Assembly (NCBI GenBank): GCA_040217195.1
Contig: JAVJNR010000009.1
Span: 64,001-128,000 of the forward strand
DNA length: 64,000 nt
Direction of reading: 5' to 3'
Origin: Leptospiraceae bacterium
GTDB lineage: Bacteria > Spirochaetota > Leptospiria > Leptospirales > Leptonemataceae
The notes beneath the pieces were generated by a model. It was not told where the DNA came from. It ran no database searches and saw only the letters and a list, made by a program, of their open reading frames with translations. The position numbers and the translations under genes are program-made. Positions 6,116 to 37,727 of this stretch are shown here, in pieces; the stretch's first letter is position 1; the number at the start of each line of letters is the position of its first letter.

Positions 6116-6871
6116 TCATTTCTGGCCATCTGAGGAAGAGGACAGCGGGAAGTAGTCCGCAAAATCCTCGGAGCCTATGATCTTTACCTGACCAGGTCGA
6201 AGCTTGTTTTTATACTCCATGGCCGATATGCCATGAATCAAAAATCCCGGATAGTAATAATCCAATCCCATTTCCTGAGCCAGATGAATTTCCAGCAACA
6301 TAGAATAGTGTCCAGGAGAATATGAGCTGTATTCCGGATCGAAAAAGAAATACACCGAACTCCAGGCATCCATGATCAAATCGCATATACCCAGGCCTAT
6401 CATTTTACCCTCATCCCAGATCTGTAATTCGCGAGTTCGATCTCCAAGAAAACTTCGTACGAAAAACTCCATATAGGAAAATTCATCCAGCATCAATGCC
6501 TGTTCCGGATCGCCATGCTGGGCTGCCAGATACTTTCGATATAAATCCATTTTCTCCTGGGTCATTCCCGGTCGCACCAATCTGTACTGAAATCGCTGCT
6601 GACCCGATCGAAACACCCTTCGCTGGCTCTTTCGCATTTCGAAGGAGTCTACATGCACTCTATAAATCTGACATTCCCGGCAGGATGGACAATCCGGACG
6701 ATAAAGGTGATCCCCGCTACGTCTGTACCCTTCATCCAGCAGCATTCGATACATCTGCCCCACATTATCGCCGCGAAGAAAAAGCAATGATGCAGGCCGA
6801 TCCTTGAAGTAAGGACAGAGAGGCTCATGCCTGGCCAGAAAGAATTGCTTTTCCAATTGCGGTAAATTCAT
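6116..6871 (-). CDS. ate: Arginyl-tRNA--protein transferase / Bpt-like aminoacyl transferase (ATE_N + ATE_C)
   Basis: CPY, GYRRSGDHLYRPDCPSCREC, SSVYFFFDP, SPG, YYYPGF, MEYK motifs. Confidence 0.88.
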   Translation of the reverse strand: MNLPQLEKQFFLARHEPLCPYFKDRPASLLFLRGDNVGQMYRMLLDEGYRRSGDHLYRPDCPSCRECQIYRVHVDSFEMRKSQRRVFRSGQQRFQYRLVRPGMTQEKMDLYRKYLAAQHGDPEQALMLDEFSYMEFFVRSFLGDRTRELQIWDEGKMIGLGICDLIMDAWSSVYFFFDPEYSSYSPGHYSMLLEIHLAQEMGLDYYYPGFLIHGISAMEYKNKLRPGQVKIIGSEDFADYFPLSSSSDGQK

Positions 6872-6883
6872 AGTGTTTTATAG

Positions 6884-7501
6884 AGGTACGCTCGCTCGGC
6901 TACCTCCTGTAGCCGCGCTCCCGTTTTCTTTTTTTGCGGTCCTACGGACCTTGCGATCATCCTGATCGCGGAGATCAAGATCTCCAGGTACGCTCACTCG
7001 GCTACCTCCTGTAGCCGCGCTCCCGTTTTCTTTTTTTGCGGTCCTACGGACCTTGCGATCATCCTGATCGCGGAGATCAAGATCTCCAGGTACGCTCGCT
7101 CGGCTACCTCCTGTAGCCGCGCTCCCGTTTTCTTTTTTTGCGGTCCTACGGACCTTGCGATCATCCTGATCGCGGAGATCAAGATCTCCAGGTACGCTCA
7201 CTCGGCTACCTCCTGTAGCCGCCCTCCCGTTATCTTTTTTTGCGGTCCTACGGACCTTGCATGAACCGGTTGGGTTGCGGCGCAACCCCCTCAAATTGCT
7301 GCCGCCTTCCAGTTGGCCTACCTGATCGCGGAGATCAAGATCTCCAGGTACGCTCACTCGGCTACCTCCTGTAGCCGCCCTCCCGTTATCTTTTTTTGCG
7401 GTCCTACGGACCTTGCATGAACCGGGTGGGTTGCGGCGCAACCCTCTCAAATTGCTGCCGCCTTCCAGTTGCCCCACCTGATCGCGGAGATCCGGATCTC
7501 C
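6884..7501. repeat. Tandem array of 3 x 102 bp and 2 x 156 bp units, each a chain of small hairpins
   Basis: Units start at 6884, 6986, 7088, 7190 and 7346; stems cggctac/gtagccg, ggtcc/ggacc, gcgatca/tgatcgc, ggagatc/gatctcc; long units add gggttgcg/cgcaaccc. Confidence 0.97.
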
Positions 7502-7705
7502 CCTAACGCTCGGCCTTTGAAGTCCGGTTTTTACCCACGGATATAAAGACCTCGCAAGCCAAACCACACGATTTGGTTTGTAGCACAATCGATGCACGGA
7601 ATCGTTGCTTGCGCTACCGAGCGGGGGCTCAAAAGCCCAACGTTGTGTCAGCTCTTTTGTCTTGACAGTTTTGTAACATCCGATCCAAGATCGTCGGGAA
7701 ATCCC

Positions 7706-9289
7706 ATGGCTTCCACCGGCAAAAATGATAACGATTCGGCTGACTCCATATTAGCACGGAGTTACCGGTTTTCCAACTATGTTCGGCTTGGCCTTGCCCT
7801 GGTTTTTGCCGGAGCGGTTCTGGCCACTGGAATCGGCCGGTTTCATTTAATCATTATACAGGCAGAAGCAGTGGGCACACTGGTCTACCTATTTCTGGGC
7901 CTTCTGGGACTCTACCTTATGCGGGGCGGTCGTATTCCCCGTCGGTATGCCCGGCTGGCCGTGTTTCTGGATCTAACCACATTGGGCGGCATCTTCGCTG
8001 TAGTCTGCTTTCACGGCACCTACCAGGCCTATCAGATGATAGGTAACATGCCGGTATTTGCCATATTCTTTATTAGCATCGGTTACTCGGCTCTGCTGGG
8101 TTCTCCAAGGTTCACATTTGCACTGACTCTTTATGCCGGTCTACTTTATGCGATGGGCCTGGTCATGGCGGCCAACAATGGCGTTGCATTTGGAGGCAAA
8201 CCCGATCCATTGAATCACGTCCTCAGCTTGCCAAATTGCATATTGCAAACATTGTTCATTGTCCTTACCGGAACCATCATTGCCGGAGTTCTACAGATGC
8301 ACAGGGGGCTTTCTAGAATTGCCGATGACCATGCAGGGGAAAAAGCAGCACTGATTCAGTCATTGAAGGAACGGCGGGAAAAGCTGGCCAATCATGCACT
8401 GGAGCTGGAGGCCACCACGGCCGATTTCAAGAGATTCGTGGAGGATACCACCGGTAGAATCGAAGCCCAGGCAGCAGCGCTGGAGCAAGCCAATGCTGTT
8501 TCAGAAGAGCTTACGGCCAGTGCGACCAGCACATCGGAAACCGTACAATCCCAGAGCCAGGGTATTGAGAGAATGGCAAGCGAAAGCCAGAGGCTGCGAA
8601 GTATCATAGATCATGTAGCCCGCTCCAACGAATCCCTGAATCGTTCAGCCCGAGATAGTATGGACAGTATGCAGGCTACCGGTGAGGCTATTGAGCAGAC
8701 CACAGGTAGCCTTCTGGATCTGGAACAGGCCTTTGCAAGCGTGCAGCAGATAACCACTATTATGATTGAGATCGCAGATAAGACGAATCTACTGTCCTTG
8801 AATGCATCCATTGAAGCAGCCAGAGCCGGAGATGCCGGCCGAGGATTTGCCGTGGTAGCCACTGAAGTTAGCAAACTTGCAGATTATACGGCCGAGAACG
8901 TCCGCAAAATTAGCGATATTGTGGAACAATCACTGCATACAATTGCAAATGCCCGTTCCCATGCGGATAATGCCGTTAGTCAGGCCACCACCCAGAGAAC
9001 CAGGACCAGAGAAACCGAACAGCAGGTCCGGGCTACTTCTGACCTGCTCAAGAGTCAGAATGAAATACTGGAAAACCTGATTGCTGAATTGGAAACTCAG
9101 AGGGACCGGGCCGGAGTTGTTATTAGCACGGCGCGTGAGCAGATAGAAGGACAGCAGGAGCTGGCAAGGACAATAACCAGCCTGGACTCCGAGGTAAGTA
9201 GAATTAACGAGGCCTCCACTCGGTTAAAACAGGGAATTGATAGTATAGCACGGCAGAGCCATGAACTGCGGGCATTGAGTCAGACGTAA
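7706..9289 (+). CDS. Methyl-accepting chemotaxis protein with multi-TM N-terminus
   Basis: [37 protein letters not shown]; about 6 TM helices; ATG 7706 in frame with ORF 7592. Confidence 0.93.
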
Positions 9290-9385
9290 GCAGTCAGTTA
9301 CCAGGCAATTGTGGACTGGCTACACCTATAGCCTGCTCCATAGACTCTGTTCAATACTAATTCGCGGCGAATTCAGCGGTCTATT

Positions 9386-9802
9386 TCAGGGAAGAAATAC
9401 GGCAGCCAGTTCTTCTTCGGTTACTGGTTTGACGATATAGCCGGCTATTTCCTGAATTTTCTTCGCTCTTTCCATGTCTGCAGGATCTGTGCTGGAACTC
9501 ACCATAAATACCGTTACCTGCCTGGGTAGATCGGACCGCATTTGAGAAAATCTCTCCATGAACTCCCAGCCATCCATCACTGGCATATTTATATCCAGCA
9601 AAATTATTTCCGGTATTTGCTCCGGATTACTGGTGACCGCCGTCAGATACTCCAAGGCTTCCGATCCATCTGAGAAAACCATGAGGTTTCTGCACATCTG
9701 GCGGCGCTTGATTAGACGCCCGGCTGTATACGTATAGGCTTCATCGTCATCAATTATACAGGCCAGATCTATCTTTCTTTGAGATTCCATATCCAGTTGC
9801 AC
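9386..9802 (-). CDS. Single-domain response regulator (CheY-like)
   Basis: IIDDD, LLDINMPVMDG, VSSS, IVKP. Confidence 0.92.
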   Translation of the reverse strand: MQLDMESQRKIDLACIIDDDEAYTYTAGRLIKRRQMCRNLMVFSDGSEALEYLTAVTSNPEQIPEIILLDINMPVMDGWEFMERFSQMRSDLPRQVTVFMVSSSTDPADMERAKKIQEIAGYIVKPVTEEELAAVFLP

Positions 9803-9868
9803 ACTTGAACATTCCGCTGACTACAGTTCAAGCTTTTCTCGTTCTGGCCCCGTCGCGCCAACCATCGA

Positions 9869-12376
9869 CTATTTCGACCGGGACTCCGCCTTAATCAATT
9901 GCACCAGTTCTTTCAGCCCATCCGGCTTCAAAAACAGGCGACAGTTAACATTCATTGCCTGATCTTTTGCCTCCTGGGATGAGTCTGCAGTTAAGATATA
10001 CAGCTCAAGATTAGCAGACATGGCCCCCAGAGAGGACCTTACACTGCGGATTAATTCAGGGCCATCCCCATCTGGCAGGTGCATATCAGATATCAAGATA
10101 TCAAACTGGTTCGCTCGGATCTCCTCCATAGCCTCTGCAATAGTGCCTACAGTAGTGATTTCATAAAGAGGGCCCAGCCTTCGGCGTAAGACCTGTTCTG
10201 TGATCACATTATCTTCTACGTATAAGATCCTATTCTTCTCTGGTTCCATTTTCTCTCTCACTAAGGCGGCCTGGCATTTTTCAATGTGCCAGGCTATGAT
10301 GGGATCAGCAGGAGCAATTCGTAAGGTATCTACAAACTGATGATACGCTTCCCTGTACTGCAGAGCTTGCTTCAGGGCCAGCCCGCCAATCAATGCCCCG
10401 GTGGCCGCACTTTTTTGCTCCTTCAGATGAGGTGGATCCGCCTCGAAGCATTCATAGACAGTCACAGGATCCTTTTTTCCTCTGATTTGAATGTGGTCTA
10501 TCTCTCTACGAGCGCAGTCATTTTTGAGCAAACGAACGGTGGCCGCTGACATTAGTATTCCACTTCCCAGTTTCTTCGAAAGGGATTCCAGTCGGGCCGC
10601 AAGGTTTACTGTATCTCCGATAACCGTTGTATCCATTCTTCCCAAAAATCCCACCGTGCCCAGGGCCACCCGACCGGTACTCAATGCAACTACGACATTG
10701 ACCGGCGGCCCTTCTTTGAGCATTCGGCTATCATTGTGGGTTGAAATCTCTTTCTGTATACGTATTGCGCATTCCACAGCGCTATCTGCCGAGCCAGGAA
10801 ACAATGCCAGCAAGCCATCGCCCAAAAACTTATCAATAAAGCCACCCTTTTCATTGACCATGGGTCCCACTCGACTCAAATACTCATTGAGAAATTGCAT
10901 GGTCTTCTCCGGTCCCATGTTTTCTGAGAGTCTGGTAAAATTACGAATGTCCACAAACATCACGGTAACTTGAGTTTCTACTACCTGACCCAGCCTAACA
11001 CTGCGAATGTCATCGCTCAAAAAGGAAAGAAATTGTTCCGGGACAAAGTGGCGCAGAGCTTCATTGGTTTCCCTTAGTTCCGTAGATAGTTCAAAGTTCT
11101 TCTTTGAGAATTTTGCGGTCCGACGCCCGAGCATGACTGCAATTGGGAACAGGAAAAAAAGAAAACCCAGGGATCCGGTCTCATAATGTACCGGGGAGTC
11201 CAGACCATCCGCGCGGAAAAAGTCATTGGCCAGGGCAAACACAAGTACCAGAAATGCAACCCCCACAAGCATGGCCTCTCTTCGAAATTTGAGTACTTCG
11301 CGTGCAAGAATAATGAGGATTATCAGAGCTGTTCCCCCTGAAAACACTTGAGCAGCAATGGTGTATTTCGAATAGACTGCAACAGGTAAAAAGATAGAGG
11401 CCGCAGAGATCAGCACCGGGACGATCAATAGGCTTCGCTTCAGTAGCAGCAATCCGCCTACCTTTAAGAACTCTAAAAGGAAATAGAGAAAAATAGGAGC
11501 GATTAACAGATCAATTGAAAACTCCATCCAGGCAAAAAGCTCATAGCCATGCGGGAACAATTCGTAGCCCAGCAGGGAACCGGTAAGACTGGCCCGCAAA
11601 CCAGCAAATAGCGCTATCCAGAAGAAATAAAAGAAAGATCGATCAGCCGGCCAGGCCAGGAAAATGATGAGAAAAAAGACTGAGCCCACCACCATGCTGC
11701 CAAAAACCAGCATTTGCCGAAGAGCCAGAAAGAGCTCGGCGCGTCGCAGAGATTGAAGGGAGCCAACCATGGACTCTTCCATGGGCCCGCCCAGGGGGTT
11801 CTGAAAATTTGATACCCGAAGTTCAATCTCATTGGACCCTGCATTTAGAACCACCAGCGGTCGCGACAGTGCAGGCTCCATTGCCTCTGCCTGGACAGCC
11901 ACATTTCCTGCCCCGGCCTGGCGCTGGCTGTTTACAAATATTTCGAATGCAGAATTCTGCCTTCCCAGCCAGATTCCGTAGGGCCCCTGAGTCTCCGGTA
12001 CCTGGATTGTAAACCTGTAGATTCCCAGGCCCGATGAGGAGGTTGCCTCATTTCTGGAATCCATGTTCCGCCAGCTTCGATGAATTGGCCGCTCCATTCC
12101 TGAAGCTGATTTTGATCCGGTTGCAGGCTCCTTTATCCACTGGAACGAAACATTGCCCCTTAGCGGATAGATCCGACTGACGTCCCCTTCCTTCCGGTCA
12201 GGAATCTGAAACTGCCCTTGCTGGCTCAGCAGAGGTTTCCCTTCCTTCACGCAGGAGATGACAGACACTGCCAACAACAGAACTGGAATAAACGTTTTAC
12301 GGGCTCCGGAAGACCTGCCGGGTTGTAATCTCATTCGGAGCATTCCTTTAATTGAGGATGGAAACCACTCTACCAA
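9869..12376 (-). CDS. 7TM-DISM-type receptor class III adenylate cyclase with C-terminal receiver domain
   Basis: Lipobox-like VISC, extracellular beta domain (VSNFQNPLGG), about 7 TM, FVDIRNFT / DKFLGDG / TVIGDTVNLAARLES, REC with VEDN, ISDMH, LTA, LKP. Confidence 0.9.
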   Translation of the reverse strand: MVEWFPSSIKGMLRMRLQPGRSSGARKTFIPVLLLAVSVISCVKEGKPLLSQQGQFQIPDRKEGDVSRIYPLRGNVSFQWIKEPATGSKSASGMERPIHRSWRNMDSRNEATSSSGLGIYRFTIQVPETQGPYGIWLGRQNSAFEIFVNSQRQAGAGNVAVQAEAMEPALSRPLVVLNAGSNEIELRVSNFQNPLGGPMEESMVGSLQSLRRAELFLALRQMLVFGSMVVGSVFFLIIFLAWPADRSFFYFFWIALFAGLRASLTGSLLGYELFPHGYELFAWMEFSIDLLIAPIFLYFLLEFLKVGGLLLLKRSLLIVPVLISAASIFLPVAVYSKYTIAAQVFSGGTALIILIILAREVLKFRREAMLVGVAFLVLVFALANDFFRADGLDSPVHYETGSLGFLFFLFPIAVMLGRRTAKFSKKNFELSTELRETNEALRHFVPEQFLSFLSDDIRSVRLGQVVETQVTVMFVDIRNFTRLSENMGPEKTMQFLNEYLSRVGPMVNEKGGFIDKFLGDGLLALFPGSADSAVECAIRIQKEISTHNDSRMLKEGPPVNVVVALSTGRVALGTVGFLGRMDTTVIGDTVNLAARLESLSKKLGSGILMSAATVRLLKNDCARREIDHIQIRGKKDPVTVYECFEADPPHLKEQKSAATGALIGGLALKQALQYREAYHQFVDTLRIAPADPIIAWHIEKCQAALVREKMEPEKNRILYVEDNVITEQVLRRRLGPLYEITTVGTIAEAMEEIRANQFDILISDMHLPDGDGPELIRSVRSSLGAMSANLELYILTADSSQEAKDQAMNVNCRLFLKPDGLKELVQLIKAESRSK

Positions 12377-12410
12377 TTGGATCAGTTCCTTGAATCCATC
12401 AACAATGGGT

Positions 12411-14759
12411 TCAAGGAGACGATTCCATAATTGGTTCTAAAACCATGGGAAGGTCAATACAAAAAGTGGTCCCCTTTCCTACTTCACTTTCTACAGAAAT
12501 AAAACCTCCCAGAGATTCAATTTGCTGAAATGTGAGATATAGTCCCAGACCACGAGCATCCTTATTGCCATGAAAGGTCTTATATAAACCAAACAACTTA
12601 TCGCCATATTTCTCCAGATCCATACCAAGACCGTTATCCTGCACCAGGATCTTCATTCGCTTTTGATCTTCCGTTGCTTCTTCTGCTTCTTTAATAGTAA
12701 TCCGGATTTCAGGTTCCCGATCCGGATGCCTGTATTTTATTGCATTAGATATTAGGTTATACAGGATACTTTCTAGATACGCGGGCTGGCTATGGAACGG
12801 ACGGACAAGGTGATTATCCCGGATCAATTGAAAAGGAACTCCATGGAACGCTCCATGCAATGTTCCCTCGATCTTTTTCAAGAGTGAATTTAAATCAATG
12901 GCTTCGTAGGACAGGTGGATAGAATGCTGAACCTGAACTACCGAAGAAAGATCATCGAGCGTTTGCATCAAGTTATTGGACGATCTCTTAAGCATTTCCC
13001 AGAGCTCTTCCTGTTCTGCCGGCTCAGGCTCAATTTCATACTCATCGATAAGAACCTTAATGTTACCGGCATAGGATCGTAAATTGTGTGCCACGATCTG
13101 TGAAAAGGCCAGCAATCTATTTCTCTGGTTATCCAGTGCCCGGATACTTCTCTTTAATTCCTCGGATTGACTGGCATTTTGAGATTCCAGGTTCTTTCTC
13201 TGGTCAATGTCTACCAGAGAACCAACCATTCTGTGCGGACCGCCATCCGCATCTCGACTGGCAAAACCCGCTGTTTCATACCATTTATAGCTTCCATCCT
13301 TGGTTCGCATACGTACTTCCAGCTTATATCTGTGGCCGCTATTCAAGTGCAGTTCCACTGCATCGAGCACCTGCTGCCGGTTATCTGGATGTAATAGGGT
13401 GTTTAGAAAGGTATCATAGGTGGCCGGAATGTCCCCTGGTTCGTAACCTAGAATTTGATAGAATGAATCAGACCATCGCTCCAGACCGGAATCAATATCC
13501 CATTCCCAGATTCCCGCCGAAATCCCGGCAGTAAAAAGCTGGAATGCCTCCTGATCCTGTGAGGCCTGAATTAGTTCTGCCTCTTTCCCCGAACGCACCG
13601 AGGCGCTATAGAACACTTCATCCCGGCGACTCTCTTCACGGACAAAAAGAATAACTGCCATTGGCTCCTGCCGGGCATCCCAGAGAGTGCCGGAGAAATG
13701 CCCCGGAACCTGTGCGGTTTGTTTAAGTCCCGGCACACCTGGTAGACTGGTTTTGAGATTGCTCTCGGGTGGTATCAGGTCCAGTAATGAAGATCCATGG
13801 ATGGAACGTCTGAGCCCGCCCAGCAAACTACGAAAGGCACCGTTCGTTTCCAGTAACGTTCCATTGGCATCCCATAATAAGAAGGGATAGCCCAGTCGGT
13901 CCGCCATGGCCGAAGTATATGTGCGACGCACGGCCCGATTCAATGCAAATTTGTGCCTCAATATTTGATAACTGAAAGCCAGAAAACCAATCATAGAAAG
14001 CAGGGCCAATGCCTCCGTGCCCAGGGCTACAGAAATAAGGCCGATTCGCAGTAGATGCAAGAACAGCAGTCCGGCCAGGAAAGGAAAACCAAGGGAAACC
14101 ACCAATGCCAGGATGGCCAGACCCAATCTTCGTCCCCGAAATACTGGGATTAAGATTGGATTGCCGGGTCGTAGAAGAAGGATTCCTGCCGCCAGAGCGA
14201 TTATCGAAACCGTGGTGGACCAGGACATCGTGGAATACAGCGCACCGGAGCCTAGATCCACGTCTCCGTACACCCGACCCACCAGGCGAACCAGCCCAGC
14301 AATAAACGCTAGAAAGCCAAGTCCGGTGGAAAGCACGGCCAGCCGAAAAAGACTGATGGCGATGAAGGCACCGCCCAGAAATAGAAGGCCAATGGCCGTC
14401 ATGAAGGACATCTGACCTGGAATCCCGATTTCAGTATAGGAATCCTCGACGAATAGCTCATCCATAGGTGCCCATCCAGCTACCGTTAGCACAGGAATGA
14501 GCATAAGCAAGAGCACAGGGATGGAATAGCGGGCAGAGTTCTTTCGATGAAAAAGAAGGCAGGCCAGAGTAAGCCCCAATAAAGTCAGGGCTGTATTGAA
14601 TTTCATGGTAGCTTTGCCCTGCAGAAGCCAGGGGACTTCGGAAGAAGGCCATACCCAGCATACCAAAGCCAGGCTCGATACAAGCAAAGGAAAAAGGAGA
14701 ATAGACCGCCTGACCAGGTGGAGCCGGTTATAGGTTAGAGCTGTAAAAACTGATGGCAC
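12411..14759 (-). CDS. Membrane PAS-domain sensor histidine kinase
   Basis: Multi-TM N-terminus, PAS (GIWEWD...LHPD...YKW), H-box AHNLRS, N-box NLISNAIKY, G1 DNGLG, G2 GLGL. Confidence 0.93.
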   Translation of the reverse strand: MPSVFTALTYNRLHLVRRSILLFPLLVSSLALVCWVWPSSEVPWLLQGKATMKFNTALTLLGLTLACLLFHRKNSARYSIPVLLLMLIPVLTVAGWAPMDELFVEDSYTEIGIPGQMSFMTAIGLLFLGGAFIAISLFRLAVLSTGLGFLAFIAGLVRLVGRVYGDVDLGSGALYSTMSWSTTVSIIALAAGILLLRPGNPILIPVFRGRRLGLAILALVVSLGFPFLAGLLFLHLLRIGLISVALGTEALALLSMIGFLAFSYQILRHKFALNRAVRRTYTSAMADRLGYPFLLWDANGTLLETNGAFRSLLGGLRRSIHGSSLLDLIPPESNLKTSLPGVPGLKQTAQVPGHFSGTLWDARQEPMAVILFVREESRRDEVFYSASVRSGKEAELIQASQDQEAFQLFTAGISAGIWEWDIDSGLERWSDSFYQILGYEPGDIPATYDTFLNTLLHPDNRQQVLDAVELHLNSGHRYKLEVRMRTKDGSYKWYETAGFASRDADGGPHRMVGSLVDIDQRKNLESQNASQSEELKRSIRALDNQRNRLLAFSQIVAHNLRSYAGNIKVLIDEYEIEPEPAEQEELWEMLKRSSNNLMQTLDDLSSVVQVQHSIHLSYEAIDLNSLLKKIEGTLHGAFHGVPFQLIRDNHLVRPFHSQPAYLESILYNLISNAIKYRHPDREPEIRITIKEAEEATEDQKRMKILVQDNGLGMDLEKYGDKLFGLYKTFHGNKDARGLGLYLTFQQIESLGGFISVESEVGKGTTFCIDLPMVLEPIMESSP

Positions 14760-14923
14760 TCAGTACCCCCCTATTCCAGAGGCTGATTGTAATCGATCAT
14801 ACATTCAAGGCTTTTTCCGAAGCGGAGAGACAGAACAGGCAGAGAACCTGGATTCAACTTAGCCTGTTGCATCGCCTCAAATCTCACTTTACGCGGCGGG
14901 TGCCTGCAGGTTTTTCGTAAAGA

Positions 14924-36944: not shown

Positions 36945-37727
36945 CTACATCAAGGACAGTTCCTGTACCTTTCGAACAAGCTCCGCCCGATTATGCACCT
37001 CCAGTTTCTTGTAGATGCTCTTTACATGATGATGAACTGTATGCGGGCTCAAGAGTAAAAACTCTGCCACCGAAGCGATGGTTTTTCCTTCCACCATAAG
37101 TTCGAGAATCTGCCTCTCCCGGTCCGTAATCTCCGGCGCCGGACTGCGCTCCTGTCTAAAGGAGGCCATTACACGCAATGCGATGGTAGGAGTAATCATA
37201 GCGCCGCCGCCAAGAACGATATCAATGGCATTCATCAGATTCTCCAGCTCCGATTTCAGCAGGTATCCGTTAACCCCATTCTTTATGGCTTCTACGATGG
37301 CTTCATCGGAAGTAAGATTGCTAAGGATAATGACCGTCAAATCCGGCTGTTTTACCGAAAGAATACCGGAAAGCTGAACGCCGCTAATGCCGGATAAATC
37401 GATGTCCAGAAGTAATAGATCGAGCTCATGCCTTTGTTCATCGCGCAGGAATTGTTCGGCGCTGGGCCAGGTAAGGATGGGCTCCTGAAACCGGCCAGAT
37501 GCCTTCAATTCGGCTACCAGAAAACGGCAGTATCTGGGATCGTTTTCTACCAGGCCAATCCGCAAACCGGTAGGGCGGCCATTTCGTTTGAGACCCGGCG
37601 CCGGAGTGCCTTTGCCCATTTCTTCTCTGGATTCTACTCTGGACCCTTCGCTTCCTTTGAATCCTTCTGATTCTGCGGATTCTCCAGATTCTTCGGATCC
37701 CATGATTCTGTTCGATTCTTCAGACAT
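36945..37727 (-). CDS. NarL/FixJ-family response regulator 2
   Basis: Close paralogue of 34100-34780 with a Ser/Glu/Gly-rich N-terminal extension; start uncertain. Confidence 0.93.
   Translation of the reverse strand: MSEESNRIMGSEESGESAESEGFKGSEGSRVESREEMGKGTPAPGLKRNGRPTGLRIGLVENDPRYCRFLVAELKASGRFQEPILTWPSAEQFLRDEQRHELDLLLLDIDLSGISGVQLSGILSVKQPDLTVIILSNLTSDEAIVEAIKNGVNGYLLKSELENLMNAIDIVLGGGAMITPTIALRVMASFRQERSPAPEITDRERQILELMVEGKTIASVAEFLLLSPHTVHHHVKSIYKKLEVHNRAELVRKVQELSLM

Follow-up and report, generated by a model that had tools for sequence, protein, structure and literature searches.

The window analysed here, a stretch of 64,000 nucleotides from a Leptospiraceae genome (G000 below), contains an array of five head-to-tail repeat units at positions 6884-7501, with lengths of 102, 102, 102, 156 and 156 nt. 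The array, which is read here on the minus strand, lies between two divergent genes. At its 3′ end is an ate-family gene (6116..6871, minus strand; domains ATE_N and ATE_C) with a start codon 13 nt from the array, so the ate mRNA likely includes part of the array. On the other side is a methyl-accepting chemotaxis protein gene (7709..9289, plus strand), which lies outside the element. A preliminary description of the locus had reported the five tandem units, the distance to the ate start codon and, in the last unit, a loop in which AA changes to CG; all three are confirmed here.

Each of the short units contains four hairpins, H1 to H4. In unit 1, the 3′-most (6884..6985; 104 bits against the family model R2, described below), H1 is at 6970-6985, H2 at 6953-6969 with an AGGAT loop, H3 at 6938-6950 with a C-GTA-G triloop and an A-rich linker next to it, and the H4 core at 6897-6915 with an AGGAG loop. 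The H4 core is enclosed by an outer ACG/CGT stem that is closed by a GGA/GAG internal loop, and the tail of the unit is GAGCGTACCT. A terminal CTA at 6881..6883, which reads TAG on the opposite strand, marks the sharp 3′ end. Unit 2 (6986..7087) is one base off unit 1, and unit 3 (7088..7189) is identical to unit 1. In the long units, 4 (7190..7345) and 5 (7346..7501), a second module of the CAACTG.AAGGCGGCAG type breaks H2, with 61 nt (7260..7320 and 7416..7476, respectively; all of these features are on the minus strand) in place of 7 nt of this CAGGATG hairpin. The four stems per unit reported previously therefore hold for the short units, whereas the two long units have three intact hairpins. 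H1 of unit 5 is a perfect 16-nt palindrome. The second module recurs elsewhere: arrays of congeners have it, and so does a PT-HINT ORF (G000:C1:3245), where it is in frame. The element continues past the end given in the preliminary description: on the plus strand, back to back with the array, is an inverted module of two loops (7550..7628, boundaries by eye); the loops contain ACGAT and ACGGAA, and the module ends in GAGCG. Relatives of this module occur at the same place in genomes G002 and G005, and inside arrays that are found only in genome G004.

Could the array be an artefact of assembly? This is unlikely because the unit contig has a depth of 30 in sequencing run X1, which may be related to the source sample, compared to 7 for the flanks (about four times), and because there are arrays at the ate site in 4 other genomes besides G000. 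Across these five genomes, the array ends 3-13 nt before the ate start codon, and in G003 it includes an inverted unit. We also considered a leader peptide and rejected it: the 239-aa ORF spanning the array is without a Pfam match, and unit spacings in relatives (104-107, 113 and 122 nt) are mostly not multiples of 3. The surroundings of the array differ between genomes. A block of about 7 kb (window 7592-14800), with chemoreceptor, response regulator, adenylate-cyclase-like and histidine-kinase-like genes, sits between the array and a class-V aminotransferase (serC-like) gene. G003 and G004 are without this block, and their serC-like gene adjoins the array; G002 and G005 have a chemoreceptor at the ate-array site. 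A short tandem repeat (18 nt, 2.5 copies) is present further along the window, at 37668-37710.

A repeat family centred on one genus

BLAST and nhmmer searches found diverged copies of the unit elsewhere in G000. After 12 loci had been set aside as duplicates or non-family sequences, 41 of 53 full-length units were aligned with MAFFT (near-duplicates and one over-long unit were left out), and the model R2 was built from this alignment. R2 has 31 matches at 12 sites in G000. The copies are dispersed and in both orientations, an outcome that the preliminary description had itself set against its proposal of a CsrA-titrating RNA. The unit is about 105 bases long and has four hairpins, in the order H1, H2, H3, linker, ACG-GGA-stem-loop-stem-GAG-CGT and a tail of ACCT(CT)A. 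Units are 76% identical within an array, 63% at the same site across genomes and 55-57% between sites, and the arrays are mosaics of three module types. The main unit is nearly always intergenic; related hairpin modules are in frame in one HTH ORF and two PT-HINT ORFs. The genes flanking the sites have no common pathway.

R2 matches are present in all seven genomes of the genus, with 44, 24, 16, 14, 6 and 2 in the six congeners. Under stricter filters, 3 of the 35 remaining genomes of the family had one match each, and the 99 genomes of the sister family had none. The rest of the phylum (148 genomes) yielded 2 weak single matches, which are AGGAT-loop hairpins and not the unit. There were no matches to the hairpin pattern in viral contigs, and pattern matches in Methylorubrum, Oligoflexus, Dehalococcoidia and one metagenome contig were rejected with model scores at or near background. 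The only strong match outside the genus (L116:4072-4182, genome G051) is head-on to the 3′ end of a tmRNA-like gene, as judged by eye.

Copies are antisense to the flanking operon at 2 sites. A tally by hand covered 17 sites, and the junctions that were divergent (3) or convergent (3) gave no information; of the 11 informative ones, 9 run in sense with the surrounding transcript (binomial P about 0.03, calculated by hand), which fits an effect at the RNA level. The replication strand shows no bias, the skew being negative at 9 of 17 positions and positive at 8.

Several other features of these genomes touch on the family. Contig C8 of G000 (234 kb, 5% of the genome) has 4 of the 12 sites, with a binomial P of 0.002 for sites that are orthologous and not independent. 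Contigs similar in size with several sites are found in G004 and G005, and C8 is possibly a second replicon. At G000:C4:615700 and C1:7102, units flank foreign-looking DNA that includes a PT-HINT ORF and separates acyl-CoA dehydrogenase and aldo-keto reductase genes, which are adjacent in G003 and G004. This suggests that arrays may serve as insertion points. Another module family, with CCACATC...GATGTGG ends and two ACGAN/ANGGAN loops, is present at G000:C7:230-1700, C1:1048079 and C2:499914; the copies at C7 flank a PIN-domain toxin-antitoxin pair, and the copy at C2 adjoins a tRNA-like sequence. A separate family of intergenic tandem repeats with the core GGTTCGC(C/A)T(T/A)A occupies at least 10 sites in G000 (e.g., C4:241589, C5:523941, C5:605380, C6:25675 and C10:318581).

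Folding and loop conservation

The preliminary description had called for a folding check. When compared to shuffled sequences, one unit folds far better than chance, with z scores of −4.9 for RNA and −5.9 for DNA. Its account of the loops stands: the hairpin CGGCTA-CAGGAGG-TAGCCG is present in 5 of 5 units, GCGAT-CAGGATG-ATCGC is present in the three short units, and in total there are 8 CAGGA(T/G)G hairpin loops on one strand of the array. The count of 26 GGA triplets on the minus strand (5, 5, 5, 5 and 6 per unit) is also correct, with 11 on the plus strand. By contrast, the excess of GGA does not hold up: a unit has 5, and 2000 dinucleotide shuffles average 3.2 (P = 0.15), which is within chance. 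Counting the same unit five times is what gives the total of 26. Only 8 of the 26 GGAs are inside CAGGA(U/G)G loops; in a short unit, terminal loops and stems account for two each and an internal loop for one.

The second check that had been called for was covariation across homologues. The fold is kept and the stems vary freely. In a structure-blind alignment made with MAFFT only, 90.5% of cells pair, H2 and H3 reach 99.6-100%, and 329 cells have changes on both sides vs. 107 in the shuffled control, which is inflated by related sequences. Further, 102 units were aligned to the model, in an alignment that leans to the model. In this alignment, the H2 and H3 stems have 1046 Watson-Crick cells, 8 G-T cells and 5 A-C cells; H1 and H4 have somewhat more G-T than A-C cells (56 vs. 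37). In H3, 85 of the 102 units carry a C-GNA-G loop (GAA 45, GTA 25, GGA 8, GCA 7), against a genome-wide background of 7.5% among 2856 C-NNN-G hairpins. Among the 64 triloop classes, GNA alone is described as giving DNA mini-hairpins (PMC13037366), and C:G is the favoured closing pair (PMC3201870).

What is conserved in the larger loops? It is not GGA. The conserved loop is C-A-[G/C]-G-A-N-G, and GGA is found in 56 of 87 H2 loops, with ACGAN in another 29 (position 2: G 56, C 29, T 1, A 0). GGA is present in 67 of 91 H4 loops, where 15 of 91 are hexaloops, and 35 of 77 units have GGA in both H2 and H4. Csr proteins need GGA, and the G-to-C switch removes it (PMC4005645, PMC8668096). Antisense sites keep GGA in 15 of 21 loops vs. 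101 of 148 elsewhere.

Filled and empty sites

For 41 array loci in four congeners, the flanking sequences were mapped onto G000. Most sites are common across the genus, with array size ranging from one unit to more than 700 nt. Other sites are filled in G004 and empty in its relatives. For example, the junction between the alpha and beta genes of a 2-oxoacid oxidoreductase is 388 nt with an array in G004 vs. 4-18 nt in 6 of 6 congeners; in outgroups, the same junction is 32-148 nt and array-free by eye (5 of 5 genomes). Similarly, a junction before a CCG/4Fe-4S gene has an array in G004 only and is empty in 6 of 6. An antisense array lies behind a TPR gene in G004, and this junction is empty in G000, G002 and G005, the three genomes scored as having both flanks on one contig. 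Lastly, one G004 unit lies within a Transposase_31 (Rpn-type) gene that is intact in G000; the unit replaces about 31 bp and brings a stop. The insertion in this gene (L084 in G004; cf. G000:C10:288236-289213) is just before an internal ribosome site and ATG, and it leaves a small C-terminal frame open. Such C-terminal products can act as antitoxins.

The 3′ end of the element is sharp at ...GTACCT(CT)A and the 5′ end is ragged. The CTA end is found in 46 of 59 array-terminal units vs. 14 of 43 internal units, and the terminal CTA provides the TAG stop of convergent genes. At the G004-only insertions, we saw no terminal inverted repeats of the kind that mark TIR-type MITEs and no clear target duplication; there is a possible duplication of CTA at one. 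The best source match for units at the G004-only sites is 0.63-0.84, with 0.84 being the window's own unit in G000, and no near-identical donor was found for these units. Units at different sites of one genome are only 57% identical on average, and they give no sign of recent copying. Movement is slow or past, given that most sites are common across the genus. A tree resting on two part-genes makes G004 sister to the other six genomes with weak support (87/95), and with G004 branching first, the tree taken by itself is also compatible with loss in the other six.

The seven genomes, which are 58-94% complete, yielded no mobilising enzyme. Y1_Tnp (PF01797, RAYT) was detected in 0 of 7, with the control positive in 6 of 14. 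RVT_1 is present in 1 of 7, and standalone GIY-YIG genes are not flanked by the hairpins. The Y2_Tnp profile had no match in any genome, nor in any control, which makes that result uninformative. An integron attC-like reading was rejected by eye, there being no GTTRRRY core at the unit ends.

Interpretation and relation to known systems

We propose that the five tandem copies belong to a non-autonomous mobile DNA repeat similar in kind to BIME and TwoAYGGAY elements, one that would be recognised in the form of a folded single strand of DNA; we put the probability of this at about 0.72. A mobile DNA repeat is likelier than a dedicated CsrA-sponge RNA because there are 12 sites in this genome and lineage-specific sites in relatives. 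Indeed, the preliminary description had held a REP/VNTR-type repeat to be an equal alternative, and the dispersed sites, the two orientations and the filled/empty pairs support that alternative. How might such an element move? The C-GNA-G mini-hairpins and ASGAN-capped stems would be targets for a nuclease or recombinase acting on folded single-stranded DNA, which would join the 3′ end at CT/CTA and in doing so replace a short stretch of the target. TnpA-REP is an example of an enzyme that cleaves at CT. Units would then increase in number and become uniform in tandem through slippage or unequal recombination, while palindrome correction, which can occur by template switching, would keep the stems Watson-Crick as the sequence drifts. 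The insertion at ate, being present in 5 genomes, is old and would be carried passively in the mRNA leader.

There is evidence that could support a role in CsrA regulation, either for a small RNA or for the mRNA leaders. The preliminary description had put forward both, the first being a stand-alone CsrB/Rsm-like small RNA from the minus strand that titrates CsrA. The eight CAGGA(U/G)G hairpin loops on one strand fit such an RNA, as does the csrA gene located behind fliW in G000 (contig C2), a gene order known from Leptospira (PMC8668096), and CsrB is the best Rfam match. However, this match is weak (9.5 bits vs. a cut-off of 71), and no Rfam family matches the window at gathering score. Moreover, the minus strand of the array has no terminator, its 3′ end runs into the ate start codon, and no sigma-70-like promoter was found for it. 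The CAGGATG hairpin is broken by an insertion in 2 of 5 units, and the family is multi-site and lineage-variable, with copies that are antisense, inverted or inside a gene. In addition, a protein antagonist of CsrA is already present in the form of FliW (PMC8668096). A stand-alone sponge RNA is thus highly improbable. A predicted CsrA-related ncRNA is mentioned for L. biflexa (PMC8668096). A cis-acting role is compatible with the mobile-repeat explanation: the element could have been co-opted as a CsrA platform, with CsrA on the AGGAN loops tuning how ate and other mRNAs are translated, or how stable they are, through their leaders, or with these mRNAs serving as diffuse sponges. The loops of the array might bind CsrA where they are transcribed. 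For L. biflexa CsrA, binding to a probe around ACACAGGAGGGU depends on GGA, the probe contains ACAGGAGG (PMC8668096), and H4 of the unit reads ACAGGAGGU. The position of the array just before the ate start codon in five genomes and the 9:2 sense lean are also consistent with co-option. GGA is found in 19 of 22 scorable loops at the ate site vs. 97 of 147 elsewhere, but this excess falls short of significance (P = 0.08), and the units are not independent. The last loop lies outside the ribosome site, some 30 nt ahead of the ate start, and AGGAX pentaloops are described as binding 1-3 orders more weakly than ANGGAX hexaloops (PMC4005645); 3 of 4 native flagellin leaders in G000 show the ANGGAG type. 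Furthermore, antisense copies keep GGA equally, and the downstream genes are unrelated. On balance, co-option is rather unlikely.

It is also conceivable that the element is not mobile, but is an ancient mRNA-structure element, with a role in stability, processing or spacing, that was present in the ancestor of the genus and was lost piecemeal. The deep divergence of stems between sites, the many orthologous sites in common and the sense bias are all consistent with this, as is the possibility that G004 branches first. The empty junctions in the outgroups argue against it, as do the unit that breaks a gene intact in G000 and the existence of antisense and inverted copies; junctions of 4-18 nt would need precise restoration. 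An origin of this kind is very unlikely. Returning to the mobile repeat, it may be more than a passenger: a mini-element moved by a non-RAYT single-stranded DNA mechanism could bring CsrA loops ahead of start codons and wire the genes into the CsrA regulon, turning their mRNAs into sponges. This combined scenario is unlikely. The host is a spirochaete presumed to rely on FliW alone.

What are the implications? The element is an undescribed structured repeat with GGA-like loops, and its empty sites offer a way to read mobility. It is a warning that hairpin arrays with CAGGA in groups other than Gammaproteobacteria, including TwoAYGGAY, may be DNA elements rather than Csr RNAs. With a sharp 3′ end, GNA triloops and no RAYT, the element offers a defined substrate on which the question of movement can be tested. 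If CsrA does bind, mobile DNA would be a route to rewired post-transcriptional control. No description of the family was found in the literature searched; the supplements of the Minerva preprint, on TwoAYGGAY variants by lineage, and of PMC3733652, on spirochaete CGTC repeats, may bear on novelty.

How does the element compare to known systems? It shares with CsrB/CsrC/RsmXYZ (RF00018 and its clan) the repeated CAGGA(U/G)G in short hairpin loops and a host with CsrA. It differs in falling below the model cut-off, in having no terminator, in being multi-site and lineage-variable, in the change of GGA to CGA in a quarter to a third of loops, and in a host that has FliW. Rickettsia palindromic elements are palindromic inserts in frame in genes (PMC3733652), and the related modules in frame in the HTH and PT-HINT ORFs are similar, when compared by description only; the main unit, in contrast, is nearly always intergenic. 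The likeness to REP/BIME/REPIN sequences is more extensive: these are extragenic palindromic units in mosaic tandem clusters, dispersed in multiple copies, with presence or absence at orthologous sites. Some REP families have 20-100 copies, with occasional insertion into genes (PMC3733652, PMC3116915). GTAG REP ends supply TAG stops (PMC3733652), and the terminal CTA does likewise here. Nevertheless, the unit of about 105 nt with four hairpins is unlike a REP of 20-40 nt with one hairpin, there is no GTAG or CGTC tag (the end is TAG(AG)GTACGCTC on the opposite strand), and the Y1_Tnp gene of REP/RAYT systems was detected in none of the seven incomplete genomes. TwoAYGGAY (RF01731) is likewise a multi-copy structured element with two GGA-type loops and tandem G-A pairs, and its function is not known (PMC4333381). 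Its copy number is variable between strains, and it forms divergent doublets with a link to REP arrays (bioRxiv 10.64898/2026.09.22.753630). TwoAYGGAY has itself been proposed as a CsrA binder from its loops alone. The conserved GGA/GAG internal loop, with putative non-canonical pairs, and the one back-to-back module at 7550-7628 are possible counterparts here. AGGAN and ACGAN would both be one deletion from ACGGAN, which hints at kinship with TwoAYGGAY. However, RF01731 has no match at the array at E up to 10, and its best match in G000 is below cut-off (19.5 vs. 43 bits) and away from the array. The loops here are mostly A[G/C]GAN pentaloops and not two AYGGAY terminal loops, the hairpins follow one another with no shared basal stem, two of them have GNA triloops, and the units are in direct tandem arrays. 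The element works like BIME/REPIN clusters and TwoAYGGAY, yet it falls outside both.
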